Shown piece after piece: positions 19,262 through 52,160 of a stretch of DNA of 64,000 nt (within the stretch, counting starts at the first letter, position 1; each line of letters starts with the position of its first letter). The notes beneath the pieces are model-generated. The model made no database searches, was not told the DNA's origin, and saw only the letters and a program-made list of their open reading frames with translations. The stretch covers positions 19,468,001-19,532,000 of the forward strand of contig OX597814.1 in the NCBI GenBank assembly GCA_951406725.2, in the 5' to 3' direction. Made by a program: the position numbers and the translations under genes. This stretch comes from Octopus vulgaris. Taxonomy: Eukaryota.

Positions 19262-19760
19262 TATGGCTGCCCCCTCGTTATCGAGTATGACCATTGCATG
19301 AAGCTTAACTGTTACTGGTGCTGTGATCGAATGTGACTTTTTAACCCAGCCAAAGATCTACAATGTCTTGTACAAAATTGGCAACTAAAACCTTTACTGG
19401 TAATAGCCGGCTGTAGTTGTAACTGGGCTTCATGTACTTTTGCATGTCGTTTAAGTCCCCCTGCCGAATTACACTCTCTTCCACATGTCCGACAGATATG
19501 ATTAGTATGGTGTATTACACCACCAGCAGTGGCCAGGTTGTCACTCATCTGTCTCGTTTAATGATTACGAAGATGCCTTTTGAGTCCAGCTTTACTGAGG
19601 CAGGGTCTTGCACAGACATTGCATGTCAGCATCAAAGGAAGACCCTTCTCTTCTGGAAGTGTAACAACGATGCCCTTCCTGACATCCCTCCTTACTTTCT
19701 CATGTGCAACTCGAGATTTCTCAAAAGTGGCTGTCCCCTCATGCACAATCCTTCTCCACC
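19262..19760 (-). mobile_element. RTE-clade LINE 3' end with three C2H2 zinc fingers
   Basis: ORFs 19558-19746 and 19312-19548 give GTATFEKSRVAHEKVRRDVRK..CNVCARPCLSKAGLKRHLRNH, CRTCGRECNSAGGLKRHAKVH and CQFCTRHCRSLAGLKSHIRSQH. A short 3' UTR runs into (ATGT)n. Confidence 0.8.
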
Positions 19761-30617: not shown

Positions 30618-31040
30618 GGCGCAGGAGTGGCTGTGTGGTAAGTAGCTTGCTAACCAACCACATGGTTCCGGGTTCAGTCCCACTGCGTGGCATCTTGGGC
30701 AAGTGTCTTCTGCTATAGCCCAGGGCCGACCAATGCCTTGTGAGTGGATTTGGTAGACGGAAACTGAAAGAAGCCTGTCGTATATATGTATATATATATA
30801 TATATGTGTGTGCGTGTTTGTGTGTCTGTGTTTGTCCCCCTAGCATTGCTTGACAACCGATGCTGGTGTATTTACGTCCCCGTCACCTAGCGGTTCGGCA
30901 ATAGAGACCGATAGAATAAGTACTAGGCTTACAAAAAATAAGTCCCGGGGTCGATTTGCTCGACTAAAGGCGGTGCTCGACTAAAGGCATGGCTACAGTC
31001 AAATGACTGAAACAAGTAAAAGAATAAAAGAGTAAAAGAG
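30618..31040 (+). mobile_element. SINE family B (young)
   Basis: Full head-to-tail match. Confidence 0.88.
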
Positions 31041-32585: not shown

Positions 32586-32604
32586 CTATCTATCTATCTA
32601 TCTA

Positions 32605-32830
32605 TCTATACAACATCGAGCGATGAGAGCCATCGAAGCTGTATCATTCTGAATCAAATTGTACTTTTCTTCCCAGTTAACACTCATCTCACTCATGTCT
32701 CTCTGCACAGCCCGTTTCCTCGAGTCCACCGGCCTGCTTCCTGGTCGCATTCTCCCCTCCACTATACACTTGACAACTGTCCTTGTCAGTCTCTCCAACG
32801 GTAAGCACAACATATAGCCAAGTAACTTTT
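32605..32830 (-). pseudogene. RTE-like LINE C-terminal remnant
   Basis: ORF 32598-32813: ERLTRTVVKCIVEGRMRPGSRPVDSRKRAVQRDMSEMSVNWEEKYNLIQN resembles EGRRRRGRP..TW.R.V..D...W.E...AQ. Confidence 0.65.
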
Positions 32831-33188
32831 CGTCTAATCGTAATGGTGTCTTGCAGTTTATGTAGGTAATCGTTTGTGATGTAGTCTGTTCTCGGTTATA
32901 ACATTAACAAAAGAAGAAAATGGAGAGATTTGTCATTTTGTGCTTTAGTGAGTTAGGTGGCAACTGGAAATTAGGAATATGAGATATTTGTTTCAGTCAT
33001 CAGATTGCAGCTGTGCCGGGGCACCATCTTGAAAAATTTTTAGTCTCAAGAATCGACCCCAGTACTTTTTTTAAAGCCTAGTACTTATTCTATCGATCCC
33101 TCCTTGTCGAATCGATAAGTTCACGGACATAAACACACCAACACTGCTTGTCAAGCTGTGGTGGGGGACAAACACAGACACATAAGCA

Positions 33189-33253
<65 letters not shown>

Positions 33254-33453
33254 GTTTAAATATTTGTTGTGCAAGATTTTTTATGTGAAGTCGTGTGTTG
33301 AAACAGATATTGTTATATTTCGGAATGGTCATATTGCCAGTTTAGCCAATAAAAACACACGCACTATATATTTGGTGTTATTTTGCTTCAGTGATATTTA
33401 TTTTTTTTTTTTTTTTATTTTTTTTTTTTTTACATTAATCTTAATCTTATTTT

Positions 33454-33498
33454 GGCCAAAGTTCTTTCGTCACACTCCTGTGACCGCATCAGTGGTCC
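33454..33498 (-). ncRNA. Minimal type I hammerhead-like ribozyme motif (left arm)
   Basis: GGACCA-CTGATGC-G-GTCACA(GGAG)TGTGAC-GAAA-GAAC-TT-TGGCC. Confidence 0.7.
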
Positions 33499-34128
33499 TT
33501 TGTTTTCTTCTCACTTACTTGTGTCTCTCCTTACTAACCGTCAGCCATTTTGTATTTCTATTGTATGTCTTCATTTGCGCATGCTTATATCTCTATGTGC
33601 GTCTATGTTTATTTAGTGTGTGGGGGGGGATGTCTGTAATATTTGTATCTTCTGGTTATATACATTCTTGTAATTTGTATTTTGTTTTTGTTGTTGTTGC
33701 TTTTGTTCTAATTTTGTTCATGTGTTTACATCCACCCATTATTATCATTACATATGCTTGTATGTATGTATAACAACAATATTAGTAATAATAATAATAA
33801 ATCTAATCGAGAAAAAAAAAAAAAAGAAAAAAAAAAGAATATACATATACATATATATATATACATACATATACATATACATATATATATATACATATAT
33901 ACACACACATATACACATATACATATACATATATATACACATATACATACATATAGATATTCATTTCTATTTCTTTAATTACCTGTGTATTTATTATGTT
34001 TGCAGGATCCACTATTGTCATATGTTGTGGTGTGCGCTATTGCTCCATTCTAGTTTTCTATTCAGGCTAGGTTTATTTTCTATTATATGTGTAGCTTCTG
34101 TAATTTGTCTAATTTGTCTAATTGTTGC

Positions 34129-34320
34129 TCATCGATTCTGTACCAACACGCCGAACAAGAACACGGGGGATCAATCAATAACATAGAGATTAAGATATTG
34201 TCCACACATAGAACAGATGCAACAATTAGACAAATTACAGAAGCTACACATATAATAGAAAATAAACCTAGCCTGAATAGAAAACTAGAATGGAGCAATA
34301 GCGCACACCACAACATATGA
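34129..34320 (+). pseudogene. PLE GIY-YIG endonuclease C-terminus
   Basis: [57 protein letters not shown] fits S.L..H....H...IL......RQI.EA..I....P.LNRK.EW. Confidence 0.8.
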
Positions 34321-34845
34321 CAATAGTGGATCCTGCAAACATAATAAATACACAGGTAATTAAAGAAATAGAAATGAATATCTATATGTATGTATATGTG
34401 TATATATATGTATATGTATATGTGTATATGTGTGTGTATATATGTATATATATATATGTATATGTATATGTATGTATATATATATATATGTATATGTATA
34501 TTCTTTTTTTTTTCTTTTTTTCTTTTTTTTTTTCTCGATTAGATTTATTATTATTATTACTAATATTGTTGTTATACATACATACAAGCATATGTAATGA
34601 TAATAATGGGTGGATGTAAACACATGAACAAAATTAGAACAAAAGCAACAACAACAAAAACAAAATACAAATTACAAGAATGTATATAACCAGAAGATAC
34701 AAATATTACAGACATCCCCCCCACACACTAAATAAACATAGACGCACATAGAGATATAAGCATGCGCAAATGAAGACATACAATAGAAATACAAAATGGC
34801 TGACGGTTAGTAAGGAGAGACACAAGTAAGTGAGAAGAAAACAAA

Positions 34846-34890
34846 GGACCACTGATGCGGTCACAGGAGTGTGACGAAAGAACTTTGGCC
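34846..34890 (+). ncRNA. Minimal type I hammerhead-like ribozyme motif (right arm)
   Basis: Identical to the left-arm motif, on the opposite strand. Confidence 0.7.
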
Positions 34891-34909
34891 AAAATAAGAT
34901 TAAGATTAA

Positions 34910-34946
<37 letters not shown>

Positions 34947-35030
34947 AATATCACTGAAGCAAAATAACACCAAATATATAGTGCGTGTGTTTTTATTGGC
35001 TAAACTGGCAATATGACCATTCCGAAATAT

Positions 35031-35067
<37 letters not shown>

Positions 35068-35068
<1 letters not shown>

Positions 35069-35365
35069 TGGAGGTGCTATGGCCCAGTGGTTAGGGCAGC
35101 GGACTCGCGGTCGGAGGATCGCGGTTTTGATTCCTAGACCGGGCGTTGTGTGTGTTTATTGACCGAAAACGCCTAAAAGCTCCACGAGGCTCCGGCAGGG
35201 GGTGGTGGCAACCCCTGTTGTACTCTTTCGCCCCAACTTTCTCTCACTCTCTCTTCCTGTTTCTTGAGCAACGCTGCGATGGACTGGGGGGTGGGGACAC
35301 GCCATAAAAACAGGGAAATTGGCTCCATGAGCCTGGCTAGGCTTGAAAAGGGCGCATAAATAAAA
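35068..35365 (+). mobile_element. SINE family C, tail type 1
   Basis: Head and tail match 22265. Confidence 0.85.
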
Positions 35366-35534
35366 AAAATAATAAATATATATATATACGTGTATGACGG
35401 GCTACTTTCAGTTTCCGCCTACCAAATCCAGTGACAAATCTTTCGTTAGCCCGGTGCTATATTAGAAGAAAACCATCTTATTTTCGGTGTATATAAGATA
35501 TGGCTATTTTTTCAAGACTCTGACAAATAGGTGC

Positions 35535-37887: not shown

Positions 37888-39172
37888 TTAGATCGTCAAT
37901 TATGAAATTTGTAGAAAAGAAAAAAAAAAGTTTTGCTAATATTTTATAAATACAAGGAATAGTTTAATCCATCAAAGTATGCATTCATATTGTCAGTACA
38001 CTTTTGCCATTTCAGCGGTAGCTTGTCCAGCCAGGAACTGTAAAATCCTGACAGTCAATGAAATCTTGGAAGGCCTGTTTTATAGCAGCATCAGTATTAA
38101 CTTTATTTTTCTTATCAAAAAGAAATTCTGGAAAAAGTGGTAGTCAGTGGAGGCAAGATCAGGTGAGCATGGTGGATGATGGGGGACTTCCAACTCCAAC
38201 CCTTGTAGTTTCACCAATGTCATTTTTGCGATGTGTGGACTGGCGTTGTCTTGCAATAAAATAGGAGTAGATCTATTGACTAATCTAGGCTTTATTTGCA
38301 AGTTTCTGCATCTTTTGGTCCAGTTGTAAGTTTTTGCATCATTTGGCCCCAGTTCGGCCGAGATTGATGAGCCATGTTTAATGAAATCATAATGGATCAC
38401 ACCTGCGCCAGACCACCAAACACACACCATCAGCTTCTTTTAAAGAATATTGCTTTTGGACTGTGCTTTGGTGGCTCGTCTTTGACCAACTATTGTGCTG
38501 AACATTTACGGTTGTTGTATTGGATCCATTTCTCATCCCATGTTACAATTCGGTTCAAAAATGATTCATTTTTGTGACTAGAAAGTAGCATAATGCAGGC
38601 TTCCAAACTTTGCTGTTTCTGATTTTCATTGAGTTCATGTGAAACCCACATCCGACTTTTCACTTTCCCGATTTGAACTAGGTGAGTCAATATTGTTTGC
38701 TTGCTGACACCAAACAACAATAATTCACGGGTACTTTGAGATGGATCTGACTCGACGGTGGCTTTCCGTTCGTCATTGTACACCTTTGTTTCTGGTCGAC
38801 TGCGTTGCTCATTTGTGAGGTCAAAGTTACCAGAACGAAATTTTGCAAACCAATTTGATACTGTATGCAGTGTAATAACATTAAAATGAAATACTTCTTT
38901 AACATTCGGAGCTGCCTGTGTTGCTGTATTTCTAAGAAAAAACTCATATTTCAAAACTGTACAAATTTCCGACTTATTCATCTCTTAACAAAAATAGCAA
39001 AAAACGTTTTATAAATACTTTATAAAGCGCAAAATGAGCTAGAATAAAGAAATAGATGTGTCAACTTTCTAATAAAAATAATGATTGTCAAAATATAATA
39101 ATGGCACAAAATGAGCAGCTGGCAAAATTTACCATATATACCTTATTACAAATTTCGTACTTGACGACCTAA
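37888..39172 (-). mobile_element. Full-length (about 1.29 kb) degenerate mariner DD34D transposon
   Basis: TIRs TTAGATCGTCAATTATGAAATTTGTA and TACAAATTTCGTACTTGACGACCTAA with TA TSD. Broken transposase in ORFs 38490-38981 (WVSHEL, VTWDEKW) and 38080-38430 (LLQDNA, PPCSPDLASTDYHFF). Confidence 0.93.
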
Positions 39173-43087: not shown

Positions 43088-43265
43088 AACGGGAAGCTTT
43101 ATGAAAATAAACAAAAGACGAAGGCAGGTGGAAAACAAACGAACAATTGTATTAGTATGGCGCTCAGGAAATATAAATAAAACAAGTCTTTAACGTTTCG
43201 AGCCTACGCTCTTCAACAGAAAGATACACAGCAGAGAGAAAAACACAGAAAGAAGGAGAGAAAAC
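43088..43265 (-). mobile_element. PLE-like pseudo-LTR with hammerhead-like motif (43187-43224)
   Basis: TCTTT-CTGTTGA-A-GAGC(GTAG)GCTC-GAAA-CG-TT-AAAGA, in (TA)n. Second copy at 63135-63292, related tail at 58088-58160. Confidence 0.65.

Positions 43266-43797: not shown

Positions 43798-43800
<3 letters not shown>
43495..43800 (-). mobile_element. PLE-like pseudo-LTR beginning at a canonical hammerhead core (43749-43800)
   Basis: GG-CTGATGA-GAAA...TTTC-GAAA-CCGG-TA-CC, flanked by (TA)n. Confidence 0.7.
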
Positions 43801-51348: not shown

Positions 51349-52160
51349 ATAACGAAGCGTCTAGGCACAGATTGACATTGAACCCTGCTGTGCATGCGCA
51401 CTAAGTTTTAACGTTTTAGCTCACTTCCGCTGTTTACAGCAGTGCTTGGAAGGAAGATGTGTAGCATGTGATCGTCGCATTGACCATGATAAAGGAAGTT
51501 GTCATGGTGATAACTGCTCAGAGGCTTACGCAAAGTTTCAGAAAGTGCATGGAGAGGTATATGTGAGTAGCACACAAGTGTACGAGTGGTTCAGACGAAA
51601 CACTGTCGATAGTGACGAAAGTTCTGGAAGCCCCACAACCAACAGAACTGAGAAAAACATCGCAGATGTCTGTGTGCAGCTGTGAGGGGAAATCGTAAAA
51701 TCACCATCCGTGAATTATCAGAGGATGCACGGAGTAGTTACGGTTCAGTTCAGTCTGTTATCACTGAAAATATGGGTGGGAGATGCGTGTCTGCCAAGTT
51801 TGAGTCAAAACTGCTTTCAGATGACCAAAAAGACACTCGAGTTTCTGTAGCACAAGATCTCCTTGATAGTGTCAAGAACGATGAAAACTTTTTGAAAACT
51901 TTGAGTAGTCCTGTGGGCAGGTATCGCCAAGCTTTTGGCAAAATTTGATGCAGATTCTCTGCACAGCTTTCTCTGTCATGTGACGAACACATTTTCTTTC
52001 CAAGCACTGCTGTAAACAGCGGAAGTGAGCCAGAACGTTAAAACTTAGTGCGCATGCACAGCAGAGTTCAAGGTCAATCTGTGCCAACCGGGTCTACTCT
52101 CTGTACTGTAGCTTCGTTACTATAGCAACAGTCGTCCGGATACTTATAGATCAGACCACG
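51349..52160. mobile_element. Mariner derivative made of two inverted 5' ends
   Basis: 51364-51470 is inverted at about 51990-52085. Plus strand: VSSTQVYEWF...NRKITIRELSED...LLSDDQKDTRV. Minus strand: MTEKAVQRICIKFCQKLGDTC. Right TIR GTCCGGATACTTATAGATCAGACCACG-TA. Confidence 0.85.

Follow-up and report, generated by a model that had tools for sequence, protein, structure and literature searches.

Organization of the locus

In the window, i.e., the stretch of 64,000 nucleotides of Octopus vulgaris contig OX597814.1 analyzed here, positions 33253-35038 are occupied by a palindromic unit (Table 1). A first-pass annotation of the same DNA had described a palindrome of 1.7 kb with near-identical arms of about 820 bp, including their microsatellites. 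Both the structure and the close match of the arms were recovered, while the whole unit measures 1786 bp. Global alignment of 33307-34128 with the reverse complement of 34219-35038 yielded 811 matches in 812 aligned bases, with the sole mismatch (33417) lying within a poly-T run, and 18 gap columns, nine of which fall in homopolymer or microsatellite runs and nine of which represent a duplication of TAATTTGTC. The arms are unequal in their homopolymer lengths. Among the 163 inverted self-matches kept in the window the palindrome had the top score, followed by six SINE copies (78-91% alike) and one microsatellite match (69%) in the next seven ranks. No further copy of the element was found within the window, where its other matches were of low complexity, and no palindrome is present at the centre of the unit.

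Table 1. Features of the palindromic unit and its flanks (window coordinates; a dot marks features without strand).
Feature	Positions	Strand	Basis
Host SINE-like repeat, 3′ half, running into its own (TA)n	33051-33222	-	78.5% to window copy 30781-30956
(TA)n tract, 59 bp, left half of target	33194-33252	.	sequence
PLE tail, 54 nt, inverted copy only, extends ATG frame	33253-33306	-	sequence and run depth
Putative ORF start of the element, ATG at 33332 (26 nt in arm, 80 nt with tail)	33253-33332	-	open frame; same arrangement in PMC3846280
Left arm, inverted 5′-truncated copy, 822 bp	33307-34128	-	arm alignment
Type I minimal hammerhead motif, left copy, CUGAUGC core at 33492	33454-33498	-	descriptor match
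9-nt tandem duplication at TAATT micro-repeat	34101-34118	.	sequence
2-nt GC microhomology at inversion junction	34127-34128	.	X9 contig ends at 34127, arm match to 34128
Spacer, 90 bp, extra 5′ sequence of direct copy, endonuclease coding	34129-34218	+	in frame with right arm
C-terminal 63 codons of PLE GIY-YIG endonuclease, TGA at 34318-34320	34129-34320	+	homologue alignment
Right arm, direct 5′-truncated copy, tail-less, 820 bp, ATG at 35013	34219-35038	+	arm alignment
Putative intron-like stretch (GT donor, microsatellite, polypyrimidine-AG)	34356-34542	+	motif scan
Type I minimal hammerhead motif, right copy, C3 at 34852	34846-34890	+	descriptor match
(TA)n tract, 29 bp, right half of target	35035-35063	.	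sequence
Separate dispersed repeat in the same (TA)n tract, not PLE	35064-35372	+	8 other window matches, 72-90%
Host SINE-like repeat, 5′ half, collinear with left half	35372-35469	-	80% to window copy 30706-30805

The two copies are not mirror images in every respect. The inverted copy has a tail and the 9-nt duplication, and the direct copy reaches 90 nt further into the endonuclease frame. The tail, previously noted as a left-only extension, was confirmed, with an inner boundary that is ambiguous by 4 nt since ATAT is common to the tail and the right (TA)n tract. The duplication had been placed at the inversion junction; it is present, but its position is 10 nt into the left arm, at a site where two TAATT units of the element are spaced 9 nt apart. 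As such a pair is the usual setting for polymerase slippage, the duplication likely arose in this way. The ATG found in both arms (33332 and 35013) may well be the true ORF start. A motif scan additionally revealed donor- and acceptor-like signals at 34356 and 34542, such as a retained spliceosomal intron of an EN+ PLE might show, in a repeat-rich stretch most of which was skipped by the read comparison described below. The product is without RT and cannot move by itself.

Compared with another copy in the window, the two flanking SINE halves share the minus orientation and adjoin each other at the (TA)n tract. This collinearity implies that the palindrome and the second repeat at 35064-35372 split one host element. 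The (TA)n sequence at the target masks any target-site duplication. The SINE-like repeat with its central (TA)n tract has 24 matches in the window, and (TA)n tracts of at least 12 bp make up 4% of it. Presumably, this repeat resembles octopus SINEs.

Next to these repeats, the window contains mariner-type transposase fragments (PF01359 and PF17906) at 38083-38984(-) and 51365-51682(+) as well as two decayed stretches at 19315-19750(-) and 32601-32903(-), which resemble LINE C-termini. The first of these contains C2H2 fingers and was rejected as a host exon, as a stop lies between the fingers. The 124 frames of at least 75 residues yielded only three transposase matches and one C2H2 match and thus no host gene, although short exons would escape such a search. 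ARAGORN reported zero genes.

Coding remnant and assignment to Penelope-like elements

Spacer and right arm together form 63 open codons on the plus strand. A phmmer search of the peptide against 1.84 billion representatives yielded 37 proteins at E ≤ 1e-3, 16 of which were taken into an alignment. According to this alignment, the peptide spans the C-terminal end of the GIY-YIG domain, including the His pair, R-Q-x-x-E-A and L-N-x-K-x-E-W, and the stop codon follows eight codons past the conserved EW. Pfam applied to the peptide itself gave no GIY-YIG match and only a weak unrelated one (E 0.11), while the Pfam GIY-YIG family was found in six of twelve scanned proteins, three times above the curated cut-off. 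Two of the twelve (P0006 and P0037) were unrelated repeat proteins with repeat-driven matches and were dropped. The first-pass annotation had called the spacer in-frame GIY-YIG coding sequence and had named a missing GIY-YIG profile match as evidence against its reading. The frame is as claimed, the encoded portion being the C-terminal part of the endonuclease without the GIY-YIG motif itself. The Pfam match is literally missing; the reading is not thereby refuted, because most of the fragment falls outside the region recognized by Pfam in the homologues. The spacer scored 32.7 bits against a profile (best of 1000 shuffles: 7.9 bits), a value that is circular since the 16 profile sequences had been found with the peptide.

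Proteins P0039-P0093 are RT plus GIY-YIG proteins, mostly of 800-1,200 residues, with a TDKSG motif and a short Cys linker, and most of them are unnamed. Of 55 long relatives, 48 match the peptide, in all 48 cases C-terminal to the YxDD motif, and 48 contain a CX2-8CxxC linker when a relaxed pattern is used; the linker region is absent from the truncated copy. The order in the relatives is RT motif, Cys linker, and GIY-YIG with CCHH at the C-terminus. None of six long relatives examined with Pfam contained a family at E ≤ 0.01. A word-indexed search with a 55-residue peptide for longer proteins that might represent the parent ORF gave nine candidates, none of them at E ≤ 1e-3. The frame of the tail bears a weak likeness to the N-terminus of P0039, which was reached by 2 of 2000 shuffles against P0039 alone. 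The likeness was spotted by eye, is not significant over 55 proteins (499 of 2000 shuffles), and is not counted as support.

In the light of these data the element is very probably a Penelope-like element (PLE). Its C-terminal GIY-YIG endonuclease, recognized from the sequences of homologues rather than by a direct Pfam match, would place it among the EN+ PLEs. This is in line with the pLTR structure of the 5′-truncated copies and the one-sided tail extending the putative ORF start. PLE-type RT can be judged from the relatives only, where YxDD lies upstream in all 48 that match, since the copy is truncated. On the testable features, the insertion is thus an EN+ PLE insertion. The earlier description as an inverted 5′-truncated PLE copy with tail and hammerheads is supported by the homologues, the alignment, and published PLE features. 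Naiad and Chlamys, which have an N-terminal endonuclease and no canonical hammerhead, were considered and rejected, as the endonuclease ends here in a stop followed by UTR and a hammerhead. With Neptune and Nematis, which combine a C-terminal GIY-YIG with a CX2-5CxxC linker, the relatives share the order of RT motif, Cys linker, and GIY-YIG. Their linker is short and, by eye, nearer to that of Nematis than to that of Neptune (PMC8557442, text of Fig. S2), whereas most relatives have TDKS(G/S) in contrast to DK(G/R)G in the Nematis rows, a comparison made via the relatives.

Occurrence of the family in public sequencing runs

Parts of the stretch are contained in 20 of 24 listed runs from ten studies, one of which may be the source of the window itself. 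Four runs were compared with 32700-34300 at 90% likeness; uncovered bins in this comparison are mostly skipped repeats and uninformative. The summed depth of covered element bins was mostly 10^5-10^6 in X1-X3, compared to 46-48 on the unique flank (X2, X3), which shows that the element family is very abundant, although summed depth is not a copy number. Among the listed runs that contain part of the stretch, none is on record as RNA; X9 is only guessed to be RNA, and its coverage reflects the family and is not attributable to this locus.

In all four runs the depth of the tail was approximately 1/9 to 1/5 of that of the next bin. Loose contig ends at 33307 read (TA)n in at least 20 contigs of X1 and at least 23 of X2. 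Both observations indicate that the tail-less end is a recurrent terminus of the family and (TA)n its usual target. At the other end of the arm, at least six X9 contigs depart from the window at 34127; together with the arm match up to 34128, this points to a 2-nt GC overlap of two truncated copies. Among the matches listed, five of the six frequent family variants in the endonuclease frame are synonymous, and one frequent variant in the putative ORF start falls on a third codon position. At all 13 family-variable sites the two arms agree in carrying the window allele, which in several cases is a minority allele (at four of the 13 sites in X1). This indicates that both arms derive from one locus or one molecule.

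These data also bear on the possibility of a fold-back chimera formed during library preparation or, as considered in the first-pass annotation, during assembly. Such structures are known to trouble assemblies (PMC8557442), and among the matches listed for 32700-34300 no contig spans the inversion junction or the junction between tail and flank, with flank contigs ending at the SINE. However, a fold-back chimera should have mirrored one of the flanks, whereas these are not mirrored and instead make up a single SINE in two collinear halves. In addition, private sequence occurs in each arm, and the arm end coincides with the recurrent end of the family. Since the SINE is split at (TA)n and an abundant family ends at the same base beside (TA)n, we consider an artefact highly improbable.

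Hammerhead motifs and read-through RNA

An identical hammerhead with a CUGAUGC core had been reported for both arms, and it was found at 34852(+) and 33492(-). A descriptor search yielded six sites in the window and none in any of 20 block-shuffled windows. The right copy has C at position 9 (34858), a 6-bp helix II, and a helix III of G-AA-C, and its cut is predicted after 34885 (CUU). Helices I and II form in the MFE structure of the motif, with z of only -1.1 to -1.7. As in EN+ PLEs, the hammerhead lies within the pLTR, although with a variant core: the canonical CUGANGA is replaced in both arms by the form with C at position 9, and instead of palindromic positions 15.2-16.2 with loop 3, through which a dimer could form, there is G-AA-C, the 6-nt core of which gives a self-duplex of +1.4 kcal/mol.

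Compared to the minimal type I hammerheads of PMC4209133, the motif is alike in its short helix I, the 6-bp helix II, the extra base between positions 9 and 10.1, the G10.1-C11.1 pair, and the tiny helix III. The extra base after position 9 and G10.1-C11.1 are traits of min-HHRs. It differs by C instead of A at position 9, the non-palindromic helix III, and the CUU site. The Rfam hammerhead models did not match at gathering score or at E ≤ 10, and a scan of the whole window with Rfam gave nothing at gathering and two chance matches near the motif. The string CUGAUGC had zero matches in the extracted text of supplement file 2 of PMC4209133, and a search of titles revealed no report of an A9C variant, with the likeliest place, PMC5785218, lying outside its scope. 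Among the matches listed in four runs, no variant of at least 10% occurred within 33455-33498. C at position 9 therefore appears to be shared by the whole family, as far as contigs of at least 90% likeness are concerned, the absence of a listed variant being no proof. If the variant core cleaves, hammerhead descriptors would have to be widened, as Rfam misses it.

The first-pass annotation had further proposed that read-through of the palindrome gives about 800 bp of dsRNA, which could be trimmed by the ribozyme of the sense strand. The predicted fold of the full 1786-nt RNA contains 806 arm-to-arm pairs and is in agreement with the first part of this proposal, to which the lack of any host exon found has to be added. 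If transcribed, such hairpins would be dsRNA substrates. A literature search by title provided nothing on point regarding the editing of PLE hairpins. The second part is not supported by the model. All 45 hammerhead bases are paired in the full fold, with the five that were checked all pairing with the opposite arm, and the hammerhead in a read-through hairpin is thus predicted to be buried in duplex. In a nascent RNA ending just past the motif, imposing the hammerhead fold costs approximately 82 kcal/mol. The read-through transcript contains a single sense hammerhead, which emerges after its antisense partner. A single min-HHR showed no detectable cleavage (PMC4209133), and cleavage was reported only in the presence of protein in PMC11167929. 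On these grounds, trimming of the hairpin appears unlikely, in accordance also with the non-canonical core and helix III.

Further hammerhead-like motifs lie elsewhere in the window. Positions 43219(-) and 63265(-) each contain a copy of a different hammerhead-like repeat, whose core is CUGUUGA, i.e., with U where A6 is expected, and which has a 4-bp helix II and a 5-bp helix I; it is likely the end of a different PLE family. A further hammerhead-like motif at 43798(-) has the canonical CUGAUGA core and a palindromic CCGG helix III and lies 2 nt from a (TA)n tract.

Age and origin of the insertion

With zero to one substitution in 812 arm sites, the 95% upper bound on arm divergence is 0.4-0.6%. 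At the octopus rate implied in PMC13282606 (JC 0.09 = 25 My), this corresponds to a bound of approximately 0.5-0.8 million years, which holds only for an octopus host and arms that have not been homogenised. As the same paper lists 336 Penelope-like insertions with recent activity in Octopus vulgaris, young copies are to be expected. The recent activity assumed earlier is therefore likely as judged from the arms, with homogenisation of the arms remaining as an alternative.

This alternative would involve two separate insertions, or an older inverted pair homogenised by gene conversion or assembly polishing, so that the youth is apparent only. PLEs often insert beside earlier copies (PMC6765202), the same (TA)n tract did receive a further insertion, and the minority alleles at four of the 13 sites in X1 could be accommodated as well. 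Nevertheless, neither TA nor target sequence separates the arms, the junction lies within element sequence and shows microhomology, the 63-codon frame is intact, and the homopolymer lengths of the arms differ. We regard this explanation as very unlikely.

Head-to-head inverted 5′-truncated copies are well documented for PLEs. Published insertions show an adjacent inverted 5′-truncated copy and a tail of 30-40 bp at one end (PMC8557442), and in Adineta the first 12 codons lie within the pLTR and are extended to 22 by the tail (PMC3846280). The first-pass annotation was thus right to regard inverted 5′ pseudo-LTRs as typical of PLEs. With Penelope of Drosophila virilis and Pen2a_Av of Adineta vaga (PMC3846280, PMC2377424, PMC8557442), the locus shares the inverted copy, the tail at one end, a pLTR with the first ORF codons extended by the tail, microhomology at the 5′ junction, and one hammerhead per pLTR. 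In contrast to these elements, the repeats enclose no ORF body apart from 90 bp, there is no central palindrome, the arms are approximately 820 bp instead of approximately 200 bp as in Adineta, the tail is 54 nt instead of 30-40, and a target duplication is not discernible in (TA)n. Similar to PAc Poseidon of Anolis (PMC11167929), the target is AT-rich and the tail is bounded by two recurrent ends within the ORF start. In PAc, RT begins 111-118 nt downstream of the ORF start, and hammerhead and start codon overlap, whereas here the ends lie at 26 and 80 nt and the hammerhead approximately 120 nt upstream. Previous work on PLEs already describes the inverted 5′-truncated copy, the one-sided tail into the ORF start, hammerheads, and the targeting of (TA)n.

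On balance we favour, with some reservation, the view that the locus represents a doubly 5′-truncated, head-to-head EN+ PLE insertion in the (TA)n of an older SINE, likely recent and likely formed in one event primed from nicks in both strands. As to the route, we lean slightly towards twin priming. In such a scenario the RT-endonuclease would nick both strands of the AT-rich target, and both cDNAs would copy RNA from the same source locus. One cDNA would begin at the tail-less site and run for approximately 910 nt, while the other would begin 54 nt deeper into the ORF, extend over approximately 876 nt, and suffer the 9-nt slip near its end. The two cDNA ends would then join via the 2-nt GC microhomology. 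The PLE protein studied in PMC11167929 cuts and extends both strands, with two RT start sites bounding the tail; linking this both-strand extension to inverted insertions is an inference on our part. Literature searches by title provided nothing on point regarding palindromes or twin priming in PLEs.

Simple fold-back of a cDNA anchored at the target would not leave each arm with sequence absent from its counterpart, namely the tail on the shorter arm and the spacer on the longer one, and was therefore rejected. A more elaborate form of self-priming is somewhat unlikely but deserves consideration: an antisense strand ending at 34127 would have folded back on GC and copied itself through the tail, which was then trimmed from the other end at endonuclease resolution. 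The minus strand shows exactly the order expected from fold-back, and the 9-nt slip lies 10-19 nt past the start of priming, where instability of a primer of just 2 nt is to be expected. That the arms do not differ at any of the 13 variable sites is no less compatible with fold-back than with twin priming. Moreover, self-priming on an antisense template has been proposed (PMC3846280), the tail has been ascribed to endonuclease resolution (PMC8557442), and twin priming with free choice of start sites alone would not explain why tails are usually one-sided. On the other hand, self-priming presupposes that a hairpin intermediate exists in free form and that the template arm loses its tail, the ends of the tail equal RT start sites seen in vitro (PMC11167929), and just 2 nt of microhomology and no central palindrome are available for the fold.

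As a typical PLE footprint, the single locus matters little. Since both cDNA ends, the microhomology, and the slip are readable, it nevertheless is a clean specimen with respect to the origin of PLE inverted repeats and one-sided tails, which is still open according to the discussion of PMC8557442, and the abundance of the family would permit a genome-wide test. More speculatively, and rather unlikely in this full form, the locus could belong to a hugely amplified, recently active PLE lineage with TDKSG elements of approximately 1,000 residues that maybe fall outside the named clades, a family-wide C9, non-palindromic hammerhead cutting with the help of protein, and young 0.8-kb hairpins across the genome. 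In that case, a comparison of many copies for their arm haplotypes and tail patterns would distinguish twin priming from fold-back. Among the matches listed, one X1 contig joins 33491 to 34153, linking the endonuclease frame to a point immediately beyond the hammerhead core on the antisense arm, and this joint probably marks the centre of inversion in a shorter palindromic copy at another site.
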